Shown here piece after piece: positions 6,279 through 23,842 of a DNA stretch of 64,000 nt. The stretch is taken from the NCBI RefSeq assembly GCF_030384885.1, contig NZ_CP128613.1; one strand, written 5' to 3'. Every line of letters begins with the position of its first letter. Position 1 is the stretch's first letter. Position numbers and translations under genes: made by a program. This DNA comes from Escherichia coli. Lineage in GTDB: Bacteria; Pseudomonadota; Gammaproteobacteria; Enterobacterales; Enterobacteriaceae. The notes under the pieces were generated by a model that did no database searches, was not told where the DNA came from, and was given only the letters and a program-made list of their open reading frames with translations.

Positions 6279-8558
6279 ATGGATGACCAGTTAAAACAAA
6301 GTGCACTTGATTTCCATGAATTTCCAGTTCCAGGGAAAATCCAGGTTTCTCCAACCAAGCCTCTGGCAACGCAGCGCGATCTGGCGCTGGCCTACTCACC
6401 AGGCGTTGCCGCACCTTGTCTTGAAATCGAAAAAGACCCGTTAAAAGCCTACAAATATACCGCTCGTGGTAACCTGGTGGCGGTGATCTCTAACGGTACG
6501 GCGGTGCTGGGGTTAGGCAACATTGGCGCGCTGGCAGGCAAACCGGTGATGGAAGGCAAGGGCGTTCTGTTTAAGAAATTCGCCGGGATTGATGTATTTG
6601 ACATTGAAGTTGATGAACTTGACCCGGACAAATTTATTGAAGTCGTCGCTGCGCTCGAACCGACCTTCGGCGGCATCAACCTCGAAGACATTAAAGCGCC
6701 AGAATGTTTCTATATTGAACAGAAACTGCGCGAGCGGATGAATATTCCAGTATTCCACGACGATCAGCACGGCACGGCAATTATCAGCACTGCAGCCATC
6801 CTCAACGGATTGCGCGTGGTGGAGAAAAACATCTCCGACGTGCGAATGGTGGTTTCCGGCGCGGGTGCAGCAGCAATTGCCTGTATGAACCTGCTGGTGG
6901 CGCTGGGGCTGCAAAAACATAACATCGTGGTTTGTGATTCAAAAGGCGTTATCTATCAGGGCCGTGAGCCAAATATGGCGGAAACCAAAGCCGCATATGC
7001 GGTGGTGGATGACGGCAAACGTACCCTCGATGATGTAATTGAAGGCGCGGATATTTTCCTGGGCTGTTCCGGCCCGAAAGTGCTGACCCAGGAAATGGTT
7101 AAGAAAATGGCTCGTGCGCCGATGATCCTGGCGCTTGCGAACCCGGAACCAGAAATTCTGCCGCCGCTGGCGAAAGAAGTGCGTCCGGATGCCATCATCT
7201 GTACCGGCCGTTCCGACTACCCGAACCAGGTTAATAACGTGCTTTGCTTCCCGTTCATCTTCCGTGGCGCGCTGGACGTTGGCGCAACCGCCATCAACGA
7301 AGAGATGAAACTGGCGGCGGTACGCGCGATTGCAGAACTGGCCCATGCGGAACAGAGCGAAGTCGTTGCTTCGGCGTATGGCGATCAAGATCTGAGCTTC
7401 GGCCCGGAATACATCATTCCAAAACCGTTTGATCCGCGTTTGATCGTTAAGATCGCTCCTGCGGTCGCTAAAGCGGCGATGGAGTCGGGCGTGGCGACGC
7501 GTCCGATTGCTGATTTCGACGTCTACATCGACAAGCTGACTGAGTTCGTTTACAAAACCAACCTGTTTATGAAGCCGATTTTCTCCCAGGCCCGCAAAGC
7601 GCCGAAGCGCGTTGTTTTGCCGGAAGGGGAAGAGGCTCGCGTTCTGCATGCTACTCAGGAACTGGTGACGCTGGGACTGGCGAAACCGATCCTTATCGGT
7701 CGTCCGAACGTGATCGAAATGCGCATTCAAAAACTGGGCTTGCAGATCAAAGCGGGCGTTGATTTTGAGATCGTCAATAACGAATCCGATCCGCGTTTTA
7801 AAGAATACTGGACCGAATACTTCCAGATCATGAAGCGCCGTGGTGTAACTCAGGAGCAGGCGCAGCGGGCACTGATCAGTAACCCGACAGTGATCGGCGC
7901 GATCATGGTTCAGCGTGGCGAAGCCGATGCAATGATTTGCGGTACGGTGGGCGATTATCATGAACACTTCAGCGTGGTGAAAAATGTCTTTGGTTATCGC
8001 GATGGCGTTCACACCGCAGGCGCAATGAACGCGCTGCTATTGCCGAGTGGTAACACTTTTATTGCCGATACCTACGTCAATGACGAGCCAGACGCAGAAG
8101 AGCTGGCGGAGATCACCTTGATGGCGGCAGAAACTGTTCGTCGTTTTGGTATTGAGCCGCGTGTGGCTCTGTTGTCGCACTCCAACTTTGGTTCTTCTGA
8201 CTGCCCGTCGTCGAGCAAAATGCGTCAAGCGCTGGAACTGATCAGAGAGCGTGCGCCAGAACTGATGATTGATGGTGAAATGCACGGCGATGCAGCGCTG
8301 GTGGAAGCGATTCGCAGCGATCGAATGCCGGACAGTCCTTTGAAAGGTTCTGCCAATATTCTGGTGATGCCGAACATGGAAGCTGCCCGTATTAGTTACA
8401 ACTTACTGCGTGTTTCCAGCTCGGAAGGTGTGACTGTCGGTCCGGTGCTGATGGGTGTGGCGAAACCGGTTCACGTGTTAACACCAATCGCATCCGTACG
8501 TCGTATCGTCAACATGGTGGCGCTGGCCGTGGTTGAAGCGCAAACCCAACCGCTGTAA
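6279..8558 (+). CDS. maeB: NADP-dependent malic enzyme (malic enzyme + phosphotransacetylase-like domain)
   Basis: 759-aa ORF; N-terminal malic-enzyme region and C-terminal PTA-like region; synteny. Confidence 0.9.
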
Positions 8559-8575
8559 TTCATTCTTAACTCTCA

Positions 8576-8608
8576 CGCTTACCCTGAATATTCAGGGTAA
8601 GCGGTTTT
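8576..8608 (+). terminator. Rho-independent terminator downstream of maeB
   Basis: Perfect hairpin cgcttaccctgaatattcagggtaagcg followed by gtttt. Confidence 0.6.
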
Positions 8609-8850
8609 ACTGTAATATATTAGTAAAGCTTATTACTAAGTTTTCGAATAATAAAAAAAGCAGCATATAAACTATCTCGATATCATTTTATTTATATTCA
8701 TGCGTTGCATATGAAAGTTTATGCATCACAGTAAATATCTCTCCATTCTTAGTGATCTACCTCACCTTTTAAACGCGCTTGCCGAATTTTGTTATTTACT
8801 CTGACGAAAAATTGTCACGATACACGAAAGTTTTTCACAGGCGGCGACTC
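8609..8850 (+). promoter_or_regulatory. AT-rich upstream region of eutS (eut operon promoter expected here)
   Basis: 292-bp AT-rich intergenic region preceding the first eut gene; the exact promoter and EutR site are not determined. Confidence 0.3.
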
Positions 8851-9186
8851 ATGGATAAAGAACGCATCATTCAGGAATTTGTGCCCGGCAAACAGGTCAC
8901 ACTGGCGCATCTCATCGCGCATCCCGGCGAGGAACTGGCGAAGAAAATCGGCGTTCCGGATGCGGGCGCAATTGGCATTATGACGCTAACTCCCGGCGAA
9001 ACGGCGATGATCGCCGGTGATTTAGCGCTGAAAGCCGCCGATGTGCATATCGGTTTTCTCGACCGTTTTAGCGGCGCACTGGTGATTTATGGTTCGGTGG
9101 GCGCAGTAGAAGAAGCGTTATCACAAACCGTCAGCGGTTTAGGTCGCTTATTAAATTATACGCTGTGTGAAATGACCAAAAGTTAA
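8851..9186 (+). CDS. eutS: Ethanolamine-utilisation microcompartment shell protein EutS
   Basis: Start placed at ATG 8851 ([10 protein letters not shown]), 111 aa; BMC-type shell protein; first gene of eut operon. Confidence 0.85.
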
Positions 9187-9198
9187 TACGAGGCATTC

Positions 9199-9678
9199 AT
9201 GAAACGAATTGCGTTTGTGGGTGCCGTCGGGGCAGGAAAAACAACGTTATTTAATGCATTACAGGGGAATTATACCCTCGCAAGAAAAACACAGGCCGTG
9301 GAATTTAATGATAAGGGTGATATTGATACGCCGGGTGAATATTTTAGCCATCCCCGCTGGTATCACGCCTTAATTACCACGCTACAGGATGTGGACATGC
9401 TGATTTATGTCCACGGCGCGAATGACCCGGAAAGCCGATTGCCTGCCGGGTTGCTGGATATTGGTGCCAGCAAACGGCAAATCGCCGTCATCAGTAAAAC
9501 GGACATGCCGGATGCTGACGTCGCAGCAACGCGAAAGTTATTGCTTGAAACTGGTTTTGAAGAGCCGATTTTCGAGCTAAACAGCCACGACCCGCAAAGC
9601 GTGCAGCAACTGGTGGATTATCTGGCATCTCTCACCGAACAGGAGGAAGCAGGTGAAAAAACTCATCACAGCGAATGA
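9199..9678 (+). CDS. eutP: Ethanolamine-utilisation protein EutP (P-loop NTPase)
   Basis: 159-aa ORF with Walker A GAVGAGKTT; operon position. Confidence 0.85.
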   Translation: MKRIAFVGAVGAGKTTLFNALQGNYTLARKTQAVEFNDKGDIDTPGEYFSHPRWYHALITTLQDVDMLIYVHGANDPESRLPAGLLDIGASKRQIAVISKTDMPDADVAATRKLLLETGFEEPIFELNSHDPQSVQQLVDYLASLTEQEEAGEKTHHSE

Positions 9679-10354
9679 TATTCGTGAAGCACATGCGCGC
9701 GGCGAACAGGCAATGTCCGTGGTTCTGCGCGCCAGCATTATTACCCCGGAAGCCCGTGAAGTGGCGGATCTGTTGGGTTTTACCATCACCGAATGTGATG
9801 AATCGACTGCGGTAACGACGTCCGTTCCCGCCAGCGTGCCAGCCGATAAAACCGAAAGCCAGCGCATCCGCGAAACCATCATCGCCCAGCTACCGGAAGG
9901 CCAGTTTACCGAAAGCCTGGTCGCGCAGCTGATGGAAAAAGTGATGAAGGAAAAACAGTCGCTGGAGCAGGGGGCAATGCAGCCGAGTTTTAAATCGGTG
10001 ACCGGCAAAGGCGGCATCAAAGTTATTGATGGCAGCAGCGTGAAGTTTGGTCGTTTCGATGGCGCGGAACCGCACTGCGTAGGCTTGACTGATCTCGTGA
10101 CCGGAGACGACGGCAGCAGCATGGCCGCCGGTTTTATGCAGTGGGAGAACGCCTTCTTCCCGTGGACCCTGAACTACGACGAAATCGACATGGTACTGGA
10201 AGGGGAGCTTCATGTTCGCCATGAAGGCGAAACCATGATCGCTAAAGCAGGCGACGTGATGTTTATCCCGAAAGGTTCCAGCATCGAATTTGGTACGACA
10301 TCCAGCGTGAAATTCCTGTATGTCGCCTGGCCGGCTAACTGGCAATCCCTATGA
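9653..10354 (+). CDS. eutQ: Ethanolamine-utilisation protein EutQ (cupin)
   Basis: 233-aa ORF overlapping eutP 3' end; operon position. Confidence 0.85.
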   Translation: MKKLITANDIREAHARGEQAMSVVLRASIITPEAREVADLLGFTITECDESTAVTTSVPASVPADKTESQRIRETIIAQLPEGQFTESLVAQLMEKVMKEKQSLEQGAMQPSFKSVTGKGGIKVIDGSSVKFGRFDGAEPHCVGLTDLVTGDDGSSMAAGFMQWENAFFPWTLNYDEIDMVLEGELHVRHEGETMIAKAGDVMFIPKGSSIEFGTTSSVKFLYVAWPANWQSL

Positions 10355-11154
10355 AAGATTTCATCACCGAAGCATGGCTAAGAGCGAACCATACGCTCAG
10401 CGAAGGCGCAGAGATCCATCTCCCTGCGGACAGTCGCCTGACGCCCTCTGCCCGGGAGTTACTGGAAAGCCGCCATCTGCGCATCAAGTTTATTGACGAG
10501 CAGGGCCGCCTGTTTGTTGACGATGAACAGCAGCAGCTACAGCCCGTTCACGTGCTGACCAGTAGTGATGAACATCCGCAGGCGTGCTGCGAACTGTGTC
10601 ACCAGCCAGTGGCGAAAAAGCCGGACACGCTGACTCACCTGTCGGCGGAAAAAATGGTCGCCAAAAGCGATCCGCGCCTGGGTTTTCGCGCTGTTCTCGA
10701 CAGCACCATTGCGCTGGTAGTGTGGCTGCAAATTGAACTGACAGAACCGTGGCAGCCGTGGCTGGCGGATATCCGTTCGCGTCTTGGCAACATTATGCGT
10801 GCCGATGTGTTGGGCGAACCGCTGGGCTGCCAGGCGATTGTCGGGTTTTCTGACGAAGATCTGCATCGACTTTCTCACCAGCCACTACGTTATCTCGACC
10901 ACGATCATCTGGTGCCGGAAGCCAGCCACGGACGTGATGCGGCGTTGCTGAATCTGCTACGCACCAAAGTGCGGGAAACCGAAACCGTCGCGGCGCAGGT
11001 GTTTATTACCCGTAGTTTTGAAGTATTACGCCCGGACATCTTGCAGGCGCTGAACCGCCTTTCCAGCACGGTTTACGTGATGATGATTTTGAGCGTAACG
11101 AAGCAGCCGCTAACGGTGAAGCAGATCCAACAACGACTGGGGGAAACGCAATGA
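10351..11154 (+). CDS. eutT: Ethanolamine-utilisation cobalamin adenosyltransferase EutT
   Basis: 267-aa ORF, 4-bp overlap with eutQ; operon position. Confidence 0.85.
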
Positions 11155-12167
11155 TTATTGAACGTTGTCGTGAACTGGCGTTGCGAGCGCCCGCCAGAGT
11201 GGTATTTCCGGATGCGTTAGATCAACGTGTGCTGAAAGCTGCGCAATATTTACATCAACAAGGTCTGGCAACGCCCATTCTGGTCGCCAATCCGTTTGAA
11301 CTTCGTCAGTTTGCGCTCAGTCACGGCGTGGCGATGGACGGGCTACTGGTGATTGATCCTCATAGCAACCTCGCAATGCGGGAAGAATTTGCTGACCGCT
11401 GGCAGGCCCGTGCGGGAGATAAAACGCCGTCGGATGCGCTGGAAAAACTTACCGATCCACTGATGTTCGCTGCCGCAATGGTCAGCGCTGGTAAAGCGGA
11501 TGTCTGTATCGCGGGCAACCTCTCTTCAACGGCAAATGTACTACGTGCCGGATTACGCGTTATCGGCTTGCAGCCTGGCTGTAAAACGCTCTCCTCCATT
11601 TTCCTGATGCTGCCACAGTACAGCGGTCCAGCGATGGGCTTTGCCGATTGCAGCGTAGTGCCACAGCCGACGGCGGCACAACTGGCGGATATCGCGCTTG
11701 CCAGCGCCGAAACCTGGCGAGCCATCACTGGAGAAGAGCCGCGCGTGGCGATGTTGTCGTTTTCCAGTAACGGCAGCGCCCGTCACCCCTGCGTTGCCAA
11801 CGTGCAGCAAGCGACAGAAATCGTCCGTGAGCGCGCGCCGCAGCTGGTCGTCGATGGCGAGTTGCAGTTTGACGCCGCCTTTGTGCCGGAAGTGGCGGCG
11901 CAAAAAGCGCCAGCCAGCCCGCTACAGGGCAAAGCCAATGTGATGGTTTTTCCGTCGCTGGAGGCGGGAAATATTGGCTACAAAATCGCACAACGACTTG
12001 GCGGATATCGTGCCGTCGGGCCATTGATACAAGGACTTGCCGCGCCGATGCACGATCTCTCTCGTGGTTGTAGCGTGCAGGAAATTATCGAGCTGGCGCT
12101 GGTGGCAGCTGTGCCGCGTCAGACAAAAGTGAACCGCGAAAGCAGTTTACAAACACTGGTTGAATGA
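11151..12167 (+). CDS. eutD: Phosphotransacetylase EutD
   Basis: 338-aa ORF, PTA-family sequence; operon position. Confidence 0.85.
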
Positions 12168-12205
12168 ACGGTCCCGTTCTGGACCCCTATAAAGAGGAAA
12201 ACACA

Positions 12206-12499
12206 ATGGAAGCATTAGGAATGATCGAAACCCGGGGCCTGGTTGCACTGATTGAGGCTTCTGATGCGATGGTGAAAGCTGCGCGCGTCAAACTGGTCGG
12301 CGTGAAGCAGATTGGCGGCGGCCTGTGTACTGCCATGGTTCGCGGTGATGTTGCAGCCTGTAAAGCCGCGACCGATGCCGGTGCCGCAGCGGCACAGCGT
12401 ATCGGTGAACTGGTATCCGTACATGTTATTCCGCGTCCGCACGGCGATCTGGAAGAGGTCTTCCCGATCGGCCTGAAAGGCGATAGCAGCAACCTGTAA
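12206..12499 (+). CDS. eutM: Microcompartment shell protein EutM (BMC hexamer)
   Basis: Start placed at [12 protein letters not shown] (ATG 12206), 97 aa; canonical BMC-domain sequence. Confidence 0.9.
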
Positions 12500-12604
12500 T
12501 CACCCTGTGTGACGTCGATCCGGGCGTCACGCTCTCTCCTTTTTCTTTTACCTTCCGCGGAGGGTAGGGGGAGTTTTTACCTGAAATACGCCACGGAGGC
12601 GGGT

Positions 12605-12892
12605 ATGAAACTGGCAGTCGTCACAGGACAAATTGTTTGTACCGTACGCCATCACGGACTGGCGCATGACAAATTGCTGATGGTGGAAATGATTGATCCA
12701 CAAGGTAATCCTGATGGGCAATGTGCTGTCGCCATCGACAATATTGGCGCGGGAACCGGGGAGTGGGTGTTGCTGGTGAGTGGCAGTTCCGCCCGCCAGG
12801 CGCATAAAAGCGAAACGTCACCGGTCGATCTGTGCGTGATTGGCATCGTCGATGAGGTGGTGTCTGGCGGTCAGGTAATTTTCCACAAATAA
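12605..12892 (+). CDS. eutN: Microcompartment vertex protein EutN
   Basis: Start placed at MKLAVVTGQIV (ATG 12605), 95 aa; EutN/CcmL family. Confidence 0.85.
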   Translation: MKLAVVTGQIVCTVRHHGLAHDKLLMVEMIDPQGNPDGQCAVAIDNIGAGTGEWVLLVSGSSARQAHKSETSPVDLCVIGIVDEVVSGGQVIFHK

Positions 12893-12903
12893 GGCAGAAC
12901 ATC

Positions 12904-14307
12904 ATGAATCAACAGGATATTGAACAGGTGGTGAAAGCGGTACTGCTGAAAATGCAAAGCAGTGACACGTCGCCCGCCGCCGTTCATGAGATGGGCGTTT
13001 TTGCTTCCCTGGATGACGCCGTTGCGGCGGCCAAAATTGCCCAGCAAGGGTTAAAAAGCGTGGCAATGCGCCAGTTAGCCATTGCTGCTATTCGTGAAGC
13101 AGGCGAAAAACACGCCAGAGATTTAGCAGAACTTGCCGTCAGTGAAACGGGTATGGGCCGCGTAGAAGATAAATTTGCCAAAAACGTCGCTCAGGCACGC
13201 GGTACGCCAGGCGTTGAGTGCCTCTCTCCACAGGTGCTGACCGGTGACAACGGCCTGACTTTAATTGAAAACGCGCCCTGGGGCGTGGTGGCTTCGGTGA
13301 CGCCTTCCACTAACCCGGCGGCAACCGTAATTAATAACGCCATCAGCCTGATTGCCGCGGGCAACAGCGTCATTTTTGCCCCGCATCCGGCGGCGAAAAA
13401 AGTCTCCCAGCGGGCGATTACGCTGCTCAACCAGGCGATTGTTGCCGCAGGCGGGCCGGAAAACTTACTGGTTACCGTGGCAAACCCGGATATCGAAACC
13501 GCGCAACGCTTGTTCAAGTTTCCGGGCATCGGCCTGCTGGTGGTGACCGGCGGCGAAGCGGTAGTAGAAGCGGCGCGTAAACACACCAATAAACGTCTGA
13601 TTGCCGCAGGTGCCGGTAATCCGCCTGTGGTGGTGGATGAAACCGCCGACCTCGCCCGTGCCGCTCAGTCCATCGTCAAAGGCGCTTCTTTCGATAACAA
13701 CATCATTTGTGCCGATGAAAAGGTGCTGATTGTTGTTGATAGCGTAGCCGATGAACTAATGCGTCTGATGGAAGGCCAGCATGCGGTGAAACTGACCGCA
13801 GAACAGGCACAGCAGTTACAACCGGTGTTGCTGAAAAATATCGATGAGCGCGGAAAAGGCACCGTCAGCCGTGACTGGGTGGGTCGCGATGCGGCGAAAA
13901 TCGCGGCGGCAATCGGCCTGAACGTGCCGCAAGAAACGCGCTTGCTGTTTGTAGAAACCCCCGCAGAACATCCGTTTGCCGTGACCGAACTGATGATGCC
14001 AGTGCTGCCGGTCGTGCGCGTCGCCAACGTGGCGGATGCCATTGCGCTGGCGGTGAAACTGGAAGGCGGTTGCCACCACACGGCAGCAATGCACTCGCGC
14101 AATATCGAGAACATGAACCAAATGGCGAACGCCATTGATACCAGTATTTTCGTTAAGAACGGACCGTGCATTGCCGGGCTGGGGCTGGGCGGGGAAGGCT
14201 GGACCACGATGACCATCACCACGCCAACCGGTGAAGGGGTAACCAGCGCGCGTACGTTTGTCCGTCTGCGTCGCTGTGTATTAGTCGATGCGTTTCGCAT
14301 TGTTTAA
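12904..14307 (+). CDS. eutE: Acetaldehyde dehydrogenase (acetylating) EutE
   Basis: 467-aa ORF, aldehyde dehydrogenase family; operon position. Confidence 0.9.
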   Translation: MNQQDIEQVVKAVLLKMQSSDTSPAAVHEMGVFASLDDAVAAAKIAQQGLKSVAMRQLAIAAIREAGEKHARDLAELAVSETGMGRVEDKFAKNVAQARGTPGVECLSPQVLTGDNGLTLIENAPWGVVASVTPSTNPAATVINNAISLIAAGNSVIFAPHPAAKKVSQRAITLLNQAIVAAGGPENLLVTVANPDIETAQRLFKFPGIGLLVVTGGEAVVEAARKHTNKRLIAAGAGNPPVVVDETADLARAAQSIVKGASFDNNIICADEKVLIVVDSVADELMRLMEGQHAVKLTAEQAQQLQPVLLKNIDERGKGTVSRDWVGRDAAKIAAAIGLNVPQETRLLFVETPAEHPFAVTELMMPVLPVVRVANVADAIALAVKLEGGCHHTAAMHSRNIENMNQMANAIDTSIFVKNGPCIAGLGLGGEGWTTMTITTPTGEGVTSARTFVRLRRCVLVDAFRIV

Positions 14308-14317
14308 GGAGCAACCG

Positions 14318-15154
14318 ATGGCGCACGACGAACAATGGCTTACCCCGCGTCTGCAAACGGCGGCAACGCTGTGTAACCAGACGCCCGCCACCACGGAGTC
14401 TCCGTTGTGGTTAGGGGTGGATCTGGGCACCTGCGATGTGGTGTCGATGGTTGTCGACTGCGACGGTCAGCCGGTGGCGGTATGTCTCGACTGGGCCGAT
14501 GTGGTCCGCGACGGCATCGTCTGGGATTTCTTCGGTGCTGTCACCATTGTTCGTCGCCATCTCGACACCCTCGAGCAGCAATTCGGTCGCCGTTTTAGCC
14601 ATGCGGCGACCTCATTTCCACCAGGTACGGATCCGCGTATTTCCATCAACGTGCTGGAGTCTGCCGGGCTGGAAGTGAGCCATGTGCTGGATGAGCCAAC
14701 CGCAGTCGCGGATCTGCTGCAACTGGACAACGCCGGTGTAGTGGATATTGGCGGCGGCACTACCGGAATTGCCATCGTGAAAAAGGGCAAGGTGACTTAT
14801 TCAGCGGATGAAGCGACCGGCGGACATCACATTTCTCTGACTCTCGCCGGAAATCGCCGTATTTCGCTGGAAGAGGCAGAGCAGTACAAGCGCGGTCACG
14901 GTGACGAGATTTGGCCTGCGGTGAAGCCGGTGTACGAAAAAATGGCGGACATTGTTGCCCGGCATATTGAAGGGCAGGGCATTACTGATTTATGGCTGGC
15001 GGGCGGCTCCTGTATGCAACCGGGCGTGGCGGAACTGTTTTGCAAACAATTCCCGGCGTTACAGGTGCATCTACCGCAGCACAGTTTGTTTATGACCCCG
15101 CTGGCGATCGCCAGTAGCGGGCGAGAGAAAGCGGAGGGACTATATGCAAAATGA
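14318..15154 (+). CDS. eutJ: Ethanolamine-utilisation chaperonin-like protein EutJ
   Basis: Start placed at MAHDEQ (ATG 14318); actin/Hsp70-like ATPase; operon position. Confidence 0.85.
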   Translation: MAHDEQWLTPRLQTAATLCNQTPATTESPLWLGVDLGTCDVVSMVVDCDGQPVAVCLDWADVVRDGIVWDFFGAVTIVRRHLDTLEQQFGRRFSHAATSFPPGTDPRISINVLESAGLEVSHVLDEPTAVADLLQLDNAGVVDIGGGTTGIAIVKKGKVTYSADEATGGHHISLTLAGNRRISLEEAEQYKRGHGDEIWPAVKPVYEKMADIVARHIEGQGITDLWLAGGSCMQPGVAELFCKQFPALQVHLPQHSLFMTPLAIASSGREKAEGLYAK

Positions 15155-16331
15155 ATTGCAGACCGCGCTCTTTCAGGCGTTCGATACCCTGAATCTGCAA
15201 CGGGTAAAAACATTTAGCGTTCCACCGGTGACGCTTTGCGGTCCGGGCGCGGTGAGCAGTTGCGGACAGCAAGCACAAACGCGTGGGCTGAAACATCTGT
15301 TCGTGATGGCAGACAGCTTTTTGCATCAGGCGGGGATGACCGCTGGGCTGACGCGTAGCCTGGCCGTTAAAGGCATCGCCATGACGCTCTGGCCATGTCC
15401 GGTGGGCGAACCGTGCATCACCGACGTGTGTGCCGCCGTGGCGCAGTTGCGTGAATCAGGCTGTGACGGAGTGATCGCGTTTGGCGGTGGCTCGGTGCTG
15501 GATGCGGCAAAAGCCGTTGCGTTGCTGGTGACGAACCCCGACCGCACGCTGGCAGAAATGTCAGAAACCAGCGTTCTGCAACCGCGTCTGCCGCTGATTG
15601 CCATTCCAACTACCGCCGGAACCGGCTCTGAAACCACCAACGTAACGGTGATTATCGACGCGGTGAGCGGGCGCAAGCAGGTGTTAGCCCATGCCTCGCT
15701 GATGCCGGATGTGGCGATTCTCGACGCCGCGCTGACCGAAGGCGTGCCGTCGCATGTCACGGCGATGACCGGTATCGACGCGTTAACCCATGCCATTGAA
15801 GCGTACAGTGCGCTGAACGCTACACCGTTTACAGACAGCCTGGCGATTGGCGCAATTGCGATGATTGGTAAATCACTGCCGAAAGCAGTGGGTTACGGTC
15901 ATGACCTTGCCGCGCGCGAGAGTATGTTGCTGGCTTCATGCATGGCGGGAATGGCATTTTCCAGTGCCGGACTTGGGTTATGTCACGCGATGGCGCATCA
16001 GCCGGGGGCGGCGCTGCATATTCCGCACGGACTGGCGAACGCCATGCTGCTGCCCACGGTGATGGAGTTTAACCGGATGGTCTGTCGCGAACGGTTTAGT
16101 CAGATTGGTCGGGCGCTGCGAACTAAAAAATCAGACGATCGTGACGCTATTAACGCGGTAAGTGAGCTGATTGCGGAAGTCGGGATTGGTAAACGGCTGG
16201 GCGATGTTGGCGCGACATCTGCGCATTACGGTGCATGGGCGCAGGCCGCGCTGGAAGATATTTGTCTGCGTAGCAACCCGCGTACTGCCAGCCTGGAGCA
16301 GATCGTCGGCCTGTACGCGGCGGCGCAATAA
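15144..16331 (+). CDS. eutG: Iron-containing alcohol dehydrogenase EutG
   Basis: 395-aa ORF; Fe-ADH family; operon position. Confidence 0.9.
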   Translation: MQNELQTALFQAFDTLNLQRVKTFSVPPVTLCGPGAVSSCGQQAQTRGLKHLFVMADSFLHQAGMTAGLTRSLAVKGIAMTLWPCPVGEPCITDVCAAVAQLRESGCDGVIAFGGGSVLDAAKAVALLVTNPDRTLAEMSETSVLQPRLPLIAIPTTAGTGSETTNVTVIIDAVSGRKQVLAHASLMPDVAILDAALTEGVPSHVTAMTGIDALTHAIEAYSALNATPFTDSLAIGAIAMIGKSLPKAVGYGHDLAARESMLLASCMAGMAFSSAGLGLCHAMAHQPGAALHIPHGLANAMLLPTVMEFNRMVCRERFSQIGRALRTKKSDDRDAINAVSELIAEVGIGKRLGDVGATSAHYGAWAQAALEDICLRSNPRTASLEQIVGLYAAAQ

Positions 16332-16333
16332 AT

Positions 16334-16517
<184 letters not shown>

Positions 16518-16547
16518 ATAAATAACAACTAACAGGGAGTAAAGGCG

Positions 16548-17774
16548 ATGGGAATTAACGAAATCATCATGTACATCATGATGTTCTTTATGCTGATAGC
16601 TGCCGTAGACAGGATCCTGTCGCAGTTCGGCGGTTCTGCTCGTTTCCTCGGTAAGTTCGGTAAAAGTATCGAAGGATCAGGCGGTCAGTTCGAAGAAGGC
16701 TTTATGGCAATGGGCGCTCTGGGTCTGGCGATGGTCGGTATGACCGCGCTGGCACCGGTACTGGCCCACGTACTTGGGCCGGTGATTATCCCGGTTTACG
16801 AAATGCTCGGCGCAAACCCGTCAATGTTCGCCGGAACGCTGCTGGCGTGCGATATGGGCGGCTTCTTCCTCGCCAAAGAGCTGGCGGGCGGCGACGTAGC
16901 AGCGTGGCTATACTCTGGGTTAATTCTCGGGTCGATGATGGGGCCAACGATTGTGTTTTCCATTCCGGTGGCGCTCGGCATTATCGAACCTTCTGACCGT
17001 CGTTATCTGGCGCTCGGCGTGCTGGCGGGCATTGTTACCATTCCGATTGGCTGTATTGCTGGTAGTCTGGTGGCTATGTACTCCGGTGTGCAGATCAACG
17101 GTCAGCCGGTGGAATTCACCTTTGCCCTGATCCTGATGAACATGATCCCGGTACTTATCGTCGCGGTACTGGTGGCGCTGGGGCTGAAATTCATCCCGGA
17201 AAAAATGATCAACGGCTTCCAGATCTTCGCCAAGTTCCTCGTTGCATTGATCACCCTCGGTCTTGCCGCTGCGGTAGTGAAATTCCTCCTTGGCTGGGAA
17301 CTGATCCCCGGTCTGGATCCGATCTTTATGGCCCCTGGCGATAAACCCGGTGAAGTGATGCGCGCCATTGAAGTTATCGGTTCTATCTCCTGCGTTCTGT
17401 TAGGGGCGTATCCGATGGTGCTGCTGCTGACCCGCTAGTTTGAAAAACCGCTGATGAGCGTCGGTAAGGTGCTGAATATGAACAATATCGCGGCAGCTGG
17501 CATGGTGGCAACGCTTGCTAACAACATCCCGATGTTCGGCATGATGAAGCAGATGGATACCCGCGGCAAAGTGATCAACTGTGCCTTCGCCGTTTCCGCT
17601 GCTTTCGCCCTGGGTGACCACTTAGGCTTCGCCGCTGCCAACATGAACGCCATGATCTTCCCGATGATTGTCGGCAAGTTGATCGGCGGCGTAACGGCGA
17701 TTGGCGTGGCGATGATGCTGGTGCCAAAAGAAGACGCGACCGCGGCTAAAACCGAAGCGGAGGCACAATCGTGA
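16548..17774 (+). pseudogene. eutH: Ethanolamine permease EutH interrupted by an in-frame amber codon (TAG at 17436-17438)
   Basis: Track ORFs 16548-17438 and 17454-17774 are in the same frame; 296 + 1 + 5 + 106 codons = 408, the EutH length; the sequence reads ...MVLLLTR*FEKPLMSVGK... Confidence 0.8.
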
Positions 17775-19174
17775 ACACTCGCCAGCTACTGAGCGTCGGT
17801 ATCGATATCGGCACTACCACCACCCAGGTGATCTTCTCCCACCTGGAGCTGGTTAACCGTGCGGCGGTGTCGCAGGTGCCGCGCTACGAATTCATCAAAC
17901 GCGAAATTAGCTGGCAAAGCCCGGTGTTCTTTACCCCTGTCGATAAACAGGGCGGTTTAAAAGAAGCGGAACTGAAATCCTTAATCCTCGAGCAATATCA
18001 GGCTGCGGGCATTGCGCCGGAAAGCGTTGATTCTGGTGCCATCATCATCACCGGTGAAAGCGCGAAAACCCGTAATGCTCGCCCAGCGGTGATGACGCTT
18101 TCTCAGTCGCTGGGCGATTTTGTCGTCGCCAGCGCCGGGCCGCATCTCGAATCCGTGATCGCCGGTCACGGTGCCGGGGCGCAAACCCTTTCTGAACAAC
18201 GGTTATGTCGGGTACTGAATATCGATATCGGCGGTGGCACCGCGAACTACGCTTTGTTCGATGCCGGAAAAATCAGCGGCACTGCCTGCCTTAACGTCGG
18301 CGGTCGCCTGCTGGAAACCGACAGCCAGGGGCGCGTGGTTTACGCTCATAAACCGGGGCAGATGATAGTGGATGAGTGCTTCGGTGCAGGCACTGACGCC
18401 CGTTCGCTGACCGGCGCGCAGCTGGTGCAGGTTACCCGCCGGATGGCAGAGCTGATTGTCGAAGTGATTGACGGAACGCTCTCGCCGCTCGCGCAGGCAT
18501 TAATGCAAACCGGTTTGCTGCCCGCAGGTGTTACTCCCGAAATCATTACGCTTTCTGGCGGCGTGGGCGAATGTTATCGCCACCAGCCCGCCGACCCGTT
18601 CTGTTTTGCCGATATCGGCCCGCTTCTGGCAACGGCGCTGCATGACCATCCGCGCCTGCGTGAGATGAACGTGCAGTTTCCGGCGCAAACCGTACGCGCC
18701 ACGGTGATTGGCGCGGGTGCACATACCCTTTCGCTCTCTGGCAGCACAATCTGGCTGGAGGGCGTACAACTGCCGCTGCGCAATTTGCCGGTGGCGATCC
18801 CAATTGATGAAACGGATCTGGTGAGTGCCTGGCAACAGGCGCTGATTCAGCTGGATCTTTGCCCCAAAACTGACGCGTACGTGCTGGCGCTTCCCGCCTC
18901 GCTGCCTGTGCGTTACGCCGCGGTACTGACGGTCATCAACGCGCTGGTCGATTTCGTCACGCGTTTTCCGAATCCGCATCCCCTGCTGGTGGTGGCCGGG
19001 CAGGACTTTGGTAAAGCTCTGGGCATGTTGTTGCGCCCACAGCTACAACAACTCCCGTTGGCAGTCATTGACGAAGTGATTGTCCGCGCGGGGGACTATA
19101 TCGACATTGGTACGCCTCTTTTTGGCGGATCGGTTGTGCCGGTGACGGTGAAATCACTCGCATTTCCTTCCTGA
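17771..19174 (+). CDS. eutA: Ethanolamine ammonia-lyase reactivase EutA
   Basis: 467-aa ORF; 4-bp overlap with eutH stop; operon position. Confidence 0.9.
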   Translation: MNTRQLLSVGIDIGTTTTQVIFSHLELVNRAAVSQVPRYEFIKREISWQSPVFFTPVDKQGGLKEAELKSLILEQYQAAGIAPESVDSGAIIITGESAKTRNARPAVMTLSQSLGDFVVASAGPHLESVIAGHGAGAQTLSEQRLCRVLNIDIGGGTANYALFDAGKISGTACLNVGGRLLETDSQGRVVYAHKPGQMIVDECFGAGTDARSLTGAQLVQVTRRMAELIVEVIDGTLSPLAQALMQTGLLPAGVTPEIITLSGGVGECYRHQPADPFCFADIGPLLATALHDHPRLREMNVQFPAQTVRATVIGAGAHTLSLSGSTIWLEGVQLPLRNLPVAIPIDETDLVSAWQQALIQLDLCPKTDAYVLALPASLPVRYAAVLTVINALVDFVTRFPNPHPLLVVAGQDFGKALGMLLRPQLQQLPLAVIDEVIVRAGDYIDIGTPLFGGSVVPVTVKSLAFPS

Positions 19175-19185
19175 GGGAACGACTT

Positions 19186-20547
19186 ATGAAACTAAAGACC
19201 ACATTGTTCGGCAATGTATATCAGTTTAAGGATGTAAAAGAGGTGCTGGCTAAAGCCAACGAACTGCGTTCGGGGGATGTGCTGGCGGGCGTTGCAGCGG
19301 CAAGCTCACAGGAGCGCGTGGCGGCAAAGCAGGTGTTGTCGGAAATGACCGTAGCGGACATCCGCAATAATCCGGTGATTGCCTATGAAGATGACTGCGT
19401 GACGCGGCTGATTCAGGACGACGTTAACGAAACGGCCTACAACCAGATTAAAAACTGGAGCATCAGCGAGCTGCGTGAGTATGTGCTGAGTGATGAAACC
19501 AGCGTTGACGACATTGCTTTTACCCGCAAAGGGCTGACCTCGGAAGTGGTCGCGGCGGTAGCGAAGATTTGCTCTAACGCGGATCTGATCTACGGCGCGA
19601 AGAAAATGCCGATTATCAAAAAGGCCAATACTACCATCGGTATTCCGGGCACCTTTAGCGCCCGTTTGCAGCCAAACGATACCCGCGACGACGTGCAAAG
19701 TATCGCCGCGCAAATCTACGAAGGGCTTTCTTTCGGGGTGGGCGATGCGGTGATCGGCGTTAACCCGGTGACTGACGACGTGGAAAACTTAAGCCGCGTG
19801 CTGGATACCATCTATGGCGTGATCGACAAATTCAACATTCCGACCCAGGGCTGCGTGCTGGCGCACGTTACTACCCAGATTGAAGCGATCCGTCGCGGCG
19901 CGCCGGGCGGGCTGATTTTCCAGAGCATCTGCGGCAGCGAAAAAGGGCTGAAAGAATTTGGCGTGGAGCTGGCGATGCTCGATGAAGCACGCGCAGTGGG
20001 CGCAGAGTTTAACCGTATCGCCGGGGAAAACTGCCTCTACTTCGAAACCGGGCAGGGTTCTGCGCTATCGGCGGGCGCTAACTTCGGTGCAGATCAGGTA
20101 ACGATGGAAGCGCGTAACTACGGGCTGGCACGTCATTACGATCCGTTTATCGTCAACACCGTAGTGGGCTTTATTGGGTCAGAGTATCTCTACAACGACC
20201 GGCAGATTATCCGTGCGGGCTTAGAAGATCACTTTATGGGCAAACTGAGCGGCATTTCTATGGGCTGTGACTGCTGCTACACCAACCACGCTGACGCTGA
20301 CCAGAACCTCAACGAAAACCTGATGATCTTGCTCGCCACCGCAGGCTGTAACTACATCATGGGGATGCCGCTGGGTGATGACATCATGCTCAACTACCAG
20401 ACTACGGCCTTCCACGACACCGCCACTGTGCGTCAGTTACTCAACCTGCGCCCGTCACCGGAGTTTGAACGCTGGCTGGAAAGCATGGGCATTATGGCAA
20501 ACGGTCGCCTGACCAAACGGGCGGGCGATCCGTCACTGTTCTTCTGA
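19186..20547 (+). CDS. eutB: Ethanolamine ammonia-lyase large subunit EutB
   Basis: 453-aa ORF immediately after eutA, with no intervening prophage. Confidence 0.9.
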   Translation: MKLKTTLFGNVYQFKDVKEVLAKANELRSGDVLAGVAAASSQERVAAKQVLSEMTVADIRNNPVIAYEDDCVTRLIQDDVNETAYNQIKNWSISELREYVLSDETSVDDIAFTRKGLTSEVVAAVAKICSNADLIYGAKKMPIIKKANTTIGIPGTFSARLQPNDTRDDVQSIAAQIYEGLSFGVGDAVIGVNPVTDDVENLSRVLDTIYGVIDKFNIPTQGCVLAHVTTQIEAIRRGAPGGLIFQSICGSEKGLKEFGVELAMLDEARAVGAEFNRIAGENCLYFETGQGSALSAGANFGADQVTMEARNYGLARHYDPFIVNTVVGFIGSEYLYNDRQIIRAGLEDHFMGKLSGISMGCDCCYTNHADADQNLNENLMILLATAGCNYIMGMPLGDDIMLNYQTTAFHDTATVRQLLNLRPSPEFERWLESMGIMANGRLTKRAGDPSLFF

Positions 20548-20567
20548 TGACGCGGAGATAACACATC

Positions 20568-21455
20568 ATGGATCAAAAACAGATTGAAGAAATTGTACGC
20601 AGCGTGATGGCGTCAATGGGACAAGCGGCCCCCGCGCCGTCAGAAGCAAAATGCGCCACTACCACCTGTGCAGCACCGGTGACCTCGGAAAGCTGCGCGC
20701 TGGATTTAGGTTCCGCAGAAGCAAAAGCGTGGATTGGCGTTGAAAACCCGCATCGCGCAGACGTATTAACAGAACTGCGCCGCAGCACCGTGGCCCGCGT
20801 CTGTACCGGTCGTGCCGGTCCGCGTCCGCGTACCCAGGCGTTGCTGCGTTTCCTGGCCGATCACTCTCGTTCGAAAGATACCGTACTGAAAGAAGTGCCG
20901 GAAGAGTGGGTGAAAGCGCAGGGCTTGCTGGAAGTCCGCTCTGAAATTAGCGACAAAAATCTCTATCTGACTCGCCCGGATATGGGCCGCCGCTTGTGTG
21001 CAGAGGCTGTTGAAGCGCTGAAAGCGCAGTGTGTTGCCAATCCGGACGTACAGGTGGTTATTTCCGATGGTCTGTCTACTGATGCGATCACCGTGAACTA
21101 TGAAGAGATTCTGCCACCGCTGATGGCGGGCCTGAAACAGGCCGGGTTGAAAGTCGGCACACCGTTCTTTGTGCGTTACGGTCGCGTGAAGATTGAAGAT
21201 CAGATTGGCGAACTTCTTGGCGCGAAAGTGGTGATCCTGCTGGTGGGTGAACGTCCGGGGTTGGGGCAGTCAGAAAGTCTCTCCTGCTACGCCGTTTACT
21301 CGCCGCGTATGGCAACCACCGTTGAGGCCGACCGTACCTGTATCTCTAACATTCACCAGGGCGGCACGCCGCCGGTTGAAGCCGCAGCCGTCATTGTGGA
21401 TTTGGCGAAACGTATGCTGGAGCAGAAAGCATCCGGCATCAACATGACCCGATAA
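20568..21455 (+). CDS. eutC: Ethanolamine ammonia-lyase small subunit EutC
   Basis: 295-aa ORF; operon position. Confidence 0.9.
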
Positions 21456-21464
21456 GGAGGCATC

Positions 21465-22124
21465 ATGCCAGCTTTAGATTTGATTCGACCGTCGGTAACC
21501 GCCATGCGGGTGATTGCCTCTGTTAACGCCGAATTTGCGCGTGAACTGAAATTGCCGCCGCATATTCGTAGCCTCGGGCTGATTTCTGCTGATTCCGATG
21601 ACGTCACCTACATTGCGGCTGACGAAGCGACCAAGCAGGCGATGGTTGAAGTCGTGTATGGTCGCTCGCTGTATGCGGGAGCTGCACACGGGCCGTCACC
21701 GACTGCCGGTGAAGTGCTGATTATGCTCGGGGGGCCAAACCCGGCGGAAGTGCGTGCCGGTCTGGATGCGATGGTTGCGCATATTGAAAATGGCGCTGCT
21801 TTCCAGTGGGCTAATGATGCAGAAAACACAGCCTTCCTGGCGCATGTCGTTTCGCGTACCGGCTCTTATCTCTCATCAACCGCCGGGATCACGCTTGGCG
21901 ATCCGATGGCGTATCTGGTGGCACCGCCGCTGGAAGCGACCTACGGCATTGATGCAGCCCTGAAATCTGCCGACGTGCAGCTGGTGACCTATGTCCCGCC
22001 ACCGTCTGAAACCAACTACTCGGCAGCATTTTTAACCGGTAGCCAGGCCGCGTGTAAAGCAGCCTGTAACGCCTTTACCGATGCAGTGCTGGAAATCGCG
22101 CGTAATCCAATCCAGCGTGCGTAA
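21465..22124 (+). CDS. eutL: Microcompartment shell protein EutL (tandem BMC)
   Basis: 219-aa ORF; operon position. Confidence 0.9.
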
Positions 22125-22136
22125 CGGAGGTTGCCG

Positions 22137-22637
22137 ATGATCAATGCACTGGGATTGCTGGAAGTGGACGGCATGGTCGCCGCGATAGATGCAGCTGATG
22201 CCATGCTCAAAGCAGCTAACGTTCGTCTGCTCAGTCACGAAGTGCTTGACCCTGGTCGCCTAACGCTAGTGGTGGAAGGCGATCTGGCGGCGTGTCGTGC
22301 GGCGCTGGACGCAGGTTGTGCTGCCGCGATGCGTACCGGGCGTGTCATCAGCCGTAAGGAGATCGGTCGGCCAGACGATGACACCCAGTGGCTGGTTACT
22401 GGCTTTAACCGCCAGCCGAAGCAACCCGTAAAGGAACCCGACGCGCCAGTTATCGTCGGGGAATCTGCTGACGAGTTGTTGGCGCTGTTAACATCAGTAC
22501 GTCAGGGAATGACGGCAGGAGAAGTGGCTGCCCACTTTGGCTGGCCGCTGGAAAAAGCCAGAAATGCGCTCGAACAGCTCTTTTCTGCCGGGACGTTACG
22601 TAAACGCAGTAGTCGTTATCGTCTCAAGCCCCATTAA
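22137..22637 (+). CDS. eutK: Microcompartment shell protein EutK
   Basis: Start placed at MINALGLLEVDG; N-terminal BMC domain and C-terminal basic tail. Confidence 0.85.
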   Translation: MINALGLLEVDGMVAAIDAADAMLKAANVRLLSHEVLDPGRLTLVVEGDLAACRAALDAGCAAAMRTGRVISRKEIGRPDDDTQWLVTGFNRQPKQPVKEPDAPVIVGESADELLALLTSVRQGMTAGEVAAHFGWPLEKARNALEQLFSAGTLRKRSSRYRLKPH

Positions 22638-22682
22638 CCTGTCGGAGGTGCCGGGTGTCCTACAACACCCGGCATTAACATC

Positions 22683-23735
22683 ATGAAAAAGACCCGTACA
22701 GCCAATTTGCACCATCTTTATCATGAACCCTTACCCGAAAACCTGAAGCTCACGCCGAAGGTCGAAGTGGATAATGTTCATCAACGACAGACAACGGATG
22801 TCTATGAACATGCTTTGACGATTACCGCCTGGCAGCAGATTTACGATCAGCTGCATCCGGGCAAATTTCATGGTGAATTTACGGAAATTCTGCTCGATGA
22901 TATTCAGGTTTTCCGTGAATACACGGGGCTGGCGCTGCGTCAGTCGTGCCTGGTCTGGCCGAACTCGTTCTGGTTTGGCATTCCGGCGACGCGCGGTGAG
23001 CAGGGATTTATCGGTTCGCAATGTCTGGGAAGCGCAGAAATTGCGACACGCCCTGGAGGAACCGAGTTTGAATTAAGTACGCCGGACGATTACACGATCC
23101 TTGGCGTGGTGCTTTCTGAAGATGTCATCACCCGTCAGGCTAACTTTTTGCATAACCCGGAAAGGGTGCTGCATATGTTACGTAACCAGTCGGCGCTGGA
23201 AGTGAAAGAGCAGCATAAAGCCGCGCTGTGGGGCTTTGTCCAACAGGCTCTGGCGACATTTTGCGAGAACCCGGAAAATCTCCATCAGCCTGCAGTGCGA
23301 AAAGTGCTGGGGGATAATTTGCTAATGGCGATGGGGGCGATGCTGGAAGAAGCGCAGCCAATGATGACGGCGGAAAGTATAAGTCATCAGAGTTACCGCC
23401 GATTGCTTTCCCGGGCCCGTGAATATGTGCTGGAAAACATGTCCGAACCAGTGACGGTACTGGACTTGTGTAATCAACTGCACGTCAGCCGCCGCACCTT
23501 GCAAAACGCATTTCACGCTATTTTGGGCATTGGCCCAAACGCGTGGCTGAAACGCATTCGCCTGAACGCCGTGCGCCGTGAACTGATTAGCCCGTGGTCG
23601 CAAAGTATGACGGTAAAAGACGCCGCCATGCAGTGGGGATTCTGGCATCTTGGGCAGTTTGCCACGGATTATCAGCAATTGTTTGCAGAAAAGCCTTCAC
23701 TGACGCTGCATCAGCGGATGCAGGAACTGGAGTGA
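22683..23735 (+). CDS. eutR: AraC-family transcriptional activator of the eut operon
   Basis: 350-aa ORF; C-terminal AraC-type helix-turn-helix; last gene of eut operon. Confidence 0.9.
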
Positions 23736-23842
23736 AAACGACTGGTATCGCTTTTCGCCATATTTGTGTAACGAGAAAAGCCATGCAAATACTATAATTC
23801 GTATTTCTCTCAAAGAGAGTGAAGATAATCAGGAGGTCCAGG

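Follow-up and report, generated by a model that had tools for sequence, protein, structure and literature searches.

The eutA-eutB junction of the Escherichia coli DNA analysed here (the window, meaning the whole stretch of 64 kb) is almost certainly an unoccupied attachment site, attB, within a contiguous and ancestral 17-gene eut operon, and no evidence contradicts this structural reading of the junction. The contiguous eutA-eutB state is ordinary in E. coli and has already been published (PMC6379469, PMC6652756).

Organization and integrity of the eut operon

The complete operon, which matches the enterobacterial EUT1 type in gene content and order, spans 8851..23735 on the plus strand in the order eutS, P, Q, T, D/pta, M, N, E, J, G, H, A, B, C, L, K and R. 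Gene names were carried across via ungapped alignment from the RefSeq annotation of a 99.97%-identical record (NZ_CP027579.1), and each eut ORF was inspected for its start, its stop and internal stops. The operon is colinear with that of Salmonella and, once the cryptic prophage CPZ-55 is subtracted, with that of K-12. Its DNA is ~95.5% identical to that of K-12, and as this value is even throughout the operon, a recombination signature in the form of a local divergence anomaly at the junction is ruled out.

The two genes that form the junction are intact. eutA, encoding the ethanolamine ammonia-lyase reactivase (17771..19174, plus strand, 467 aa), begins with a GTG that overlaps the eutH stop (GTGA), and eutB, encoding the full-length large subunit of the lyase (19186..20547, plus strand, 453 aa), begins with ATG. 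Their products pass NCBIfam models of the equivalog/subfamily type, EutA scoring 1071.9 bits (NF007991, cutoff 799) and EutB 659 bits (NF011649, cutoff 554), and both genes bear the same names in the annotation of the near-identical record. The preliminary description spoke of an uninterrupted 17-gene arrangement, which holds in so far as all 17 genes lie in order on one strand, but is true of gene order only: reading frames are intact in 16 of the 17 genes, and eutH is split by an in-frame TAG at codon 297.

In eutH (16548..17774, plus strand) the change of TGG to TAG at 17436-17438 (W297*) leaves fragments of 296 and 106 aa, both of which match the EutH equivalog NF011665 (positions 1-296 and 303-408), and the gene also carries G173S. 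None of the 5,426 complete E. coli genomes has the W297* allele, and with this unique nonsense codon in eutH, gene order by itself is no proof of a working pathway. No variation is seen at W297 or G173 in 24-25 other loci, the window carrying the derived state, and EutB has serine at position 332 (P332S), where 24/24 other sequences have proline. Ten of the 11 differences that separate the window from strain 2013C-4282 over 64 kb are nonsynonymous, as is typical of changes that are not under selection. It is therefore a serious possibility, which we place slightly short of an even call, that the operon is organisationally intact and functionally decaying, with eutH a pseudogene and EutH G173S and EutB P332S at invariant residues. 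On the other side, the changes may be sequencing or assembly errors or may have been introduced into the sequence; at eutE-76 and eutR-79 the window agrees with the consensus and it is 2013C-4282 that deviates, thus errors or mutations occur in both records. Penrod, Mace and Roth are reported to have found in 2004 that ethanolamine can be used without EutH when the pH is neutral and the substrate concentration high, in which case the pathway could still work, and an ATG at 17454 could permit re-initiation of the C-terminal EutH fragment. Judged from its sequence, a functional operon is not guaranteed, given the eutH stop and EutB P332S.

The eutA-eutB junction

The coordinates given at the outset, eutA ending at 19174 and eutB starting at 19186, proved exact, and the 11-nt spacer between them (GGGAACGACTT, 19175..19185, plus strand, read from the window sequence) contains no integrase or prophage DNA. 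The last codons of eutA together with its TGA stop make up an 8-bp core, CTTCCTGA (19167..19174, plus strand), which we read as the core of the unoccupied attB. A Shine-Dalgarno-like GAGGGA lies at 19173-19178, 7 nt upstream of the eutB ATG. The core stands at the eutA stop in one copy, with no duplication flanking an insert, and no integrase or att-arm remnants are present at 19167-19186. Neither blastn nor tblastn returned a match to CPZ-55, to the VG888-type island or to an IntZ homologue anywhere in the 64-kb window. Further copies of CTTCCTGA in the window, at 24958, 43750, 46384 and 2225 (minus strand), are unrelated chance 8-mers.

Islands inserted at the junction

The preliminary description placed CPZ-55 between eutA and eutB in MG1655, and NC_000913.3 bears it out: "cryptic prophage CPZ-55" is annotated at 2558691-2565480 (6,790 bp), directly between eutB (b2441) and eutA (b2451), and contains intZ and yffL-yffS. 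K-12 ER1709 has eutA and eutB split in the same arrangement. In the MG1655 interval, the comparison proposed in the preliminary description, CTTCCTGA flanks CPZ-55 as an 8-bp direct repeat, the two junctions being identical over these 8 bp and no further, and the same core is single in the window. A second island, VG888-46E9, has the identical 8-bp core on both flanks, its termini and integrase are 84-86% similar to those of CPZ-55, and both islands encode a tyrosine-type integrase beside the eutB-side junction. The literature agrees with this picture, as PMC6379469 places an insertion right after the eutA stop, with an 8-bp duplication (given on the opposite strand as 5'-TCAGGAAG-3'), in 8% of 638 strains, and PMC6652756 names the eutA/eutB locus a "prophage insertion hot spot". 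Integrase islands of one family, differing in their cargo, have repeatedly settled at this site.

On the reading that we favour, an island encoding IntZ, a tyrosine integrase, has integrated at the CTTCCTGA core in MG1655 and in a small share of other strains, appearing as CPZ-55 in K-12 and with different cargo elsewhere. Integration duplicates the core and parts eutA from eutBCLKR by 6.8-10 kb of DNA of opposite orientation. In the window the single core leads directly to the ribosome-binding site and ATG of eutB, an arrangement that allows co-transcription of the two genes, which are probably translationally coupled, as in Salmonella.

On this mechanism the 8-bp repeat would be the overlap region, where IntZ exchanges strands in site-specific recombination, and not a transposition target duplication. 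The overlap region of tyrosine recombinases is usually 7-8 bp. A transposition-type target-site duplication would suit both the wording "transposon-like integration" used in PMC6379469 and the end of shared identity between the two CPZ-55 junctions at 8 bp, but we consider it improbable: CPZ-55 has no annotated transposase, and CPZ-55 and VG888-46E9, with their differing cargo, sit at one exact nucleotide with the same 8-mer and ~85% similar ends. In addition, the CPZ-55 match is weaker or partial in ~200 further genomes and, among the matches listed, mostly covers the intZ end only. Recurrence at one site, exact to the base, is what marks integration as site-specific.

Prevalence and ancestral state

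eutA and eutB are contiguous in 4,964 of the 5,426 complete E. coli genomes (91.5%), and CPZ-55 is found at a coverage of at least 80% in 213 of them, mostly K-12 laboratory strains. The outgroup junction (eutA stop, GGGAACGACTT, eutB ATG) is identical in 35/35 species of Citrobacter, Salmonella, Klebsiella, Yokenella, Pluralibacter, Intestinirhabdus, Pseudocitrobacter and Escherichia, loci that were chosen by the exact motif of EutB residues 8-20, which adjoins the conserved block described below; independently found Salmonella enterica and K. pneumoniae junction sequences are also 98.5% identical. Two contrary states, the island as the common outgroup condition and an MG1655 free of an insertion here, were looked for and came out opposite. 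Together, the outgroups and the E. coli majority support the contiguous junction as the ancestral one.

The word "ancestral" as first applied to the locus is accordingly sound for the junction and fails at the far end, where a low-GC islet of 3.85 kb (23736..27588), outside the eut operon, separates eutR from hemF. It encodes two Sel1-repeat proteins, a Tli3-family T6SS immunity protein, a hypothetical protein and a DUF1963 protein. The islet is rare, and its presence shows that the locus is not ancestral throughout. The remark that this genome is not MG1655-like at eut stands, there being no CPZ-55 DNA in the 64 kb, and is unremarkable, because several K-12 derivatives lack the prophage too (PMC11148124, PMC5379014, PMC11334477).

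We infer that the site was never occupied in the lineage of the window. Scarless CPZ-55-free junctions in records labelled K-12 MG1655 (NZ_CP010439.1) and DH5a, and prophage-free stocks of XL1-Blue, RR1 and one laboratory's W3110, indicate that loss, or absence in an otherwise carrying lineage, does occur, and so perfect a restoration makes a never-occupied site indistinguishable from a scarless excision; that an IntZ-type island was once present here and was precisely excised by its integrase, leaving an ancestral-looking junction, is nevertheless very improbable, the empty state of most E. coli and of 100% of outgroups rendering past occupation needless, the window holding no island remnant, and the site being empty also in the closest genome, 2013C-4282.

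A conserved block at the junction

The junction lies in a block (19091..19210, plus strand, -95 to +24 relative to the eutB ATG) whose identity across 30 non-Escherichia species is 99.6%, where the operon averages 83.1% (sd 5.2), ranking first of 948 windows. In the sample of 35 loci, selected by a motif beside the block, no other part of the operon is as conserved across Enterobacteriaceae. The core used by the IntZ-type island family is contained in it. Its left edge is abrupt, at -96, and synonymous third positions are variable in 4/28 codons inside the block versus 255/296 outside (p ~4e-15). The most divergent genera, Yokenella and Intestinirhabdus, show graded extra changes in the block, which fits vertical inheritance under constraint.

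Searches for a known element gave no explanation of the block. Rfam at a permissive E-value yielded only noise-level snoRNA matches (E 2.3 and above, far under gathering scores), and no unusually stable fold was found over 191 nt (z = +0.43 sense, -1.22 antisense). A local hairpin between UUCCUUC and the eutB Shine-Dalgarno GAGGGAA (-6.2 kcal/mol, z = -0.55) is not statistically distinctive, and might plausibly act as a coupling device; covariation is not assessable, the columns being invariant. No sigma-70 promoter was found inside the block; TGGCGGATCGGTTGTG resembles a sigma-54 site by eye but agrees with the consensus at only ~8/13 positions, without the -12 GC. An antisense ORF of 49 aa with a TTG start (19214-19065, minus strand) is open in 31/35 loci and has no Shine-Dalgarno; openness is nearly automatic in so invariant a stretch. 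Homogenisation by a mobile element was likewise set aside, CPZ-55 and VG888 sharing just the 8-bp core with the site. In phage and plasmid collections the block was found only within chromosomal-type eutA-eutB segments. For carrying the conservation comparison to taxa at intermediate distance, a tblastn of EutA against the plasmid collection was of no use, identity falling from 86% straight to <40%. A literature search for an internal promoter or transcription start site at eutB returned only unrelated papers on the ectoine eutA/eutB.

Our tentative suggestion, which we think less likely than not, is that the block may be a discrete constrained nucleic-acid element and not the product of ordinary ribosome-binding-site constraint, perhaps an mRNA element that sets EutB/EutC relative to EutA output, and that its near-invariance may be why IntZ-type islands adopted the site. 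Such a putative element would act on EutB/EutC output via translational coupling, processing or stabilisation.

Significance

By itself the junction is of little weight, as it represents the common ancestral eut layout and it is MG1655 that is atypical. Its use is in recalling that the exceptional strain is K-12, whose prophage blocks both eutB induction and microcompartment formation; in BW25113 eutB is not induced and microcompartments are absent (PMC7617246). Of more weight, if followed up, are the eutH nonsense codon, the recurrent island landing pad and the conservation of the junction, where the frozen synonymous sites hint at an uncharacterised cis-acting element governing the lyase genes.

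Comparison with known eut loci

Among occupied sites, K-12 MG1655 has the same 8-bp core and the same 11-nt spacer before eutB as the window, and differs in that the core is duplicated around the 6,790-bp insert, of which the window has nothing. The E. coli island VG888-46E9 (10.3 kb, intZ with murI/gadC/IS1 cargo) occupies the same eutA/eutB site, as does the island of UPEC U71 (PMC6652756) at the same attachment core; both encode an IntZ-like integrase with variable cargo, and the window, its site unoccupied, has neither. The window shares its adjacent eutA and eutB with the loci that are free of an insert, and differs from them in that its eutH has a premature stop and its eutR is followed by the 3.85-kb islet, whereas in the reference loci of Salmonella enterica and Nissle 1917 hemF follows. 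The 17-gene operon of Salmonella enterica (Kofoid et al. 1999, J Bacteriol 181:5317, as cited in PMC7617246) has an identical gene set and gene order, likewise all on one strand, eutA being followed at once by eutB, and eut+ E. coli such as Nissle 1917 share this order with eutA and eutB adjacent. A Salmonella enterica-derived record is 98.5% identical to a 131-nt junction query, and in Salmonella arizonae the junction is identical to that of the window.

The eutA-eutB junction of the window

In the window eutA (17771-19174, plus strand, GTG start, 467 aa) is followed directly by eutB (19186-20547, plus strand, 453 aa), with 11 bases, GGGAACGACTT, between them. The ORF list thus confirms the observation of contiguity made in the preliminary description, in which the end of eutA and the start of eutB were placed exactly. 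Both proteins are assigned to EutA and EutB at the NCBIfam curated thresholds, and the RefSeq annotation of the near-identical genome 2013C-4282 (NZ_CP027579.1), whose names for the two genes agree, gives the full series eutS-P-Q-T-pta(eutD)-M-N-E-J-G-H-A-B-C-L-K-R. Reading on in the eutA frame (19172-19189), a second TGA lies four codons after the TGA stop and overlaps the eutB start (TT-ATG-A); these tandem stops and the AUGA-type overlap are a layout compatible with termination-reinitiation coupling.

In NC_000913.3 the 'cryptic prophage CPZ-55' (intZ and yffL-yffS) is annotated at 2558691-2565480, 6,790 bp; one end abuts the eutA stop codon and the other lies 11 nt from the eutB start. The prophage thus sits between eutA and eutB in MG1655, as the preliminary description says, and K-12 ER1709 has the same arrangement. 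Alignment of the window with K-12 MG1655 across this interval shows that CPZ-55 is flanked on both sides by an 8-bp direct repeat, CTTCCTGA, formed by the last bases of eutA with the TGA stop, whereas the window carries this core once, at 19167-19174, followed by the spacer and eutB. As the core is single and neither CPZ-55 DNA nor a homologue of its tyrosine-type integrase IntZ was found anywhere in the 64-kb window, the junction is an unoccupied attachment site. The 8-mer is probably the overlap region used by the recombinase and not the footprint of a transposition.

Contiguity is common and ancestral

Among the complete E. coli genomes searched (5,426), 4,964 (91.5%) give a single contiguous eutA-eutB match. 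CPZ-55 at a coverage of at least 80% was found in 213 genomes, largely K-12 laboratory derivatives among the matches listed, and about 200 further genomes gave weaker or partial matches, among those listed mostly to the intZ end only. To sample outgroups, a degenerate motif covering aa 8-20 of EutB was searched for in one genome per species, and 35 loci were obtained, from Citrobacter, Salmonella, Klebsiella, Yokenella, Pluralibacter, Intestinirhabdus, Pseudocitrobacter and non-coli Escherichia. The eutA stop, an identical 11-nt spacer and the eutB ATG were present in 35/35, including two seeming exceptions in which eutA is frameshifted and the junction intact. These contiguous outgroup loci and the duplicated core on both flanks in K-12 establish that insertion at eutA/eutB is the derived state. 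The interpretation put on contiguity is therefore supported, and the contiguous state is common, ancestral and already published.

From maeB through eut (7772-22384) the window is uniformly only ~95.5% identical to K-12. The best non-self match of eutA-eutB among the 5,426 genomes is 97.0%, and for maeB 17 genomes reach at least 99%. By these identities the lineage is a fairly divergent E. coli, nearer to E. coli than to the representatives of other Escherichia species (92-94%).

That the locus is not MG1655-like holds true in that CPZ-55 is missing, though there is little information in it, since K-12 records and stocks with a contiguous junction exist as well. NZ_CP010439.1 (locus L004, labelled K-12 MG1655, 4.60 Mb) and the DH5a record NZ_CP076470.1 have a contiguous, scarless junction free of CPZ-55, XL1-Blue and RR1 are described in the literature as lacking the prophage, and the K-12 W3110 stock used in PMC11334477 has an intact operon. 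This suggests either that the prophage can excise precisely and spontaneously or that K-12 lineages differ in carrying it. BW25113 shows no eutB induction and forms no microcompartments (PMC7617246), and an intact operon was reconstituted in this strain by deleting the prophage without a scar (PMC11334477).

The eutH nonsense codon and the eutR-hemF islet

The description of the locus as the uninterrupted ancestral 17-gene arrangement stands for the junction and for the full gene series, and has to be qualified for a nonsense codon in eutH and an islet between eutR and hemF. Both the unique nonsense codon and the rare islet, like the ultra-conservation of the junction, are more noteworthy than contiguity itself.

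Within eutH (16548-17774) an in-frame change of TGG to TAG at 17436-17438 (W297*) yields ORFs of 296 and 106 aa. Codon 297 is TGG in 2013C-4282, the closest genome, W297 is invariant across 25 other loci, and the exact 61-mer with the TAG occurs in no complete E. coli genome. Over the 64 kb the window and 2013C-4282 differ at 11 positions (5395, 13130, 17064, 17437, 20179, 22917, 25995, 27140, 40075, 42896 and 60777), six by transition and five by transversion; ten are nonsynonymous, among them the nonsense change, and a single one is synonymous. Neither genome has all the derived states: EutH G173S (17064) and EutB P332S are window-specific and fall on invariant residues, and conversely 2013C-4282 departs from the consensus residue at eutE-76 and eutR-79, where the window has it. 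With so few synonymous differences the changes look unselected, be it through very recent divergence, error or alteration. Between 27499 and 27500 the window passes through the point at which the circular record NZ_CP027579.1 is arbitrarily opened, so its source is another assembly, of a sister isolate or of the same clone in a different orientation.

The islet, a 3.85-kb segment of low GC (37-44%) at 23736-27588, encodes two Sel1-repeat proteins, a Tli3-family T6SS immunity protein, a hypothetical protein and a DUF1963 protein. Only 28 of the 5,426 E. coli genomes share any of it, in most cases the DUF1963 gene alone, and just two have the greater part. In K-12 and VG888-46E9 hemF adjoins eutR, and the two genes would also be adjacent in S. 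arizonae and the other Escherichia loci, judging from colinear alignments that skip the islet interval.

The largest intergenic gap of the operon is that between eutG and eutH (16332-16547, 216 nt); there, alignments with other Escherichia species are interrupted or overlap, and minus-strand ORFs encode arginine-rich repeats, presumably of the kind produced by REP-type palindromic elements.

An ultra-conserved block at the junction

In the outgroup alignment, the stretch from ~90 nt before the end of eutA through the spacer into the first eutB codons is almost invariant at the nucleotide level between genera in which EutA itself is only 82-91% identical to the window's protein. Among 16 genomes of 83-96% pairwise identity, most of eutA and eutB has 8-18 variable columns per 30 nt, but the 120 nt between -95 and +24 of the eutB ATG (19091-19210) have only 5 in all; the left edge of this block, at -96, is abrupt and the decay into eutB gradual. 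Against 30 non-Escherichia loci, 19100-19189 is 99.6% identical (operon mean 83.1%, sd 5.2) and ranks top of 948 windows, the next-best being other gene boundaries at 94-96%. Of the eutA codons whose amino acid is invariant, 4 of 28 inside the block differ at the third position, against 255 of 296 outside (Fisher p ~4e-15). The 35 loci were ascertained by an amino-acid motif 22-59 nt downstream of the eutB ATG, a selection that forces first and second codon positions there and cannot force the upstream nucleotides; Salmonella enterica-derived and K. pneumoniae sequences that were retrieved without the motif are 98.5% identical to a 131-nt junction query. No other part of the eut operon is thus conserved to the same degree across Enterobacteriaceae, and the synonymous sites of the block are frozen. 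The junction also occurs, at 98.5% identity, at 1202-1332 of OR850921.1 ('Salmonella phage S.Kent 1-2-1', 4,935 bp, unannotated), probably as packaged or mis-binned host chromosomal DNA and not phage sequence.

In a modest predicted hairpin the eutB Shine-Dalgarno pairs with the last codons of eutA, and the att core coincides with the 5' arm and loop. This hairpin would fit translational coupling, yet would explain only ~25 of the 120 nt. An antisense ORF is weak only. Searches of the block gave no Rfam family accounting for its conservation, no unusually stable fold on either strand and no sigma-70 promoter, and no mobile element carrying a copy was found in CPZ-55, the VG888-46E9 island or phage and plasmid collections. 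The junction that serves as the IntZ attachment site is the most invariant sequence in the operon, and may for that reason be what the integrases target.

Islands at the eutA-eutB site

CPZ-55 has a counterpart in VG888-46E9 (NZ_CP128581.1), one of the genomes with a weaker or partial CPZ-55 match, in which a 10.3-kb island (21405-31666 of the locus, L005) separates eutA from eutB and carries an IntZ-like integrase, hypothetical genes, gadC, murI, a decarboxylase pseudogene and IS1. This genome also carries eutS and eutP pseudogenes. The island has the identical core CTTCCTGA, and its ends match those of CPZ-55 at 84-86% identity; the eutA/eutB site is thus a recurrent target for a family of islands of the IntZ type whose cargo varies. 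The same site has been labelled a 'prophage insertion hot spot', with a novel prophage there in UPEC U71 (PMC6652756).
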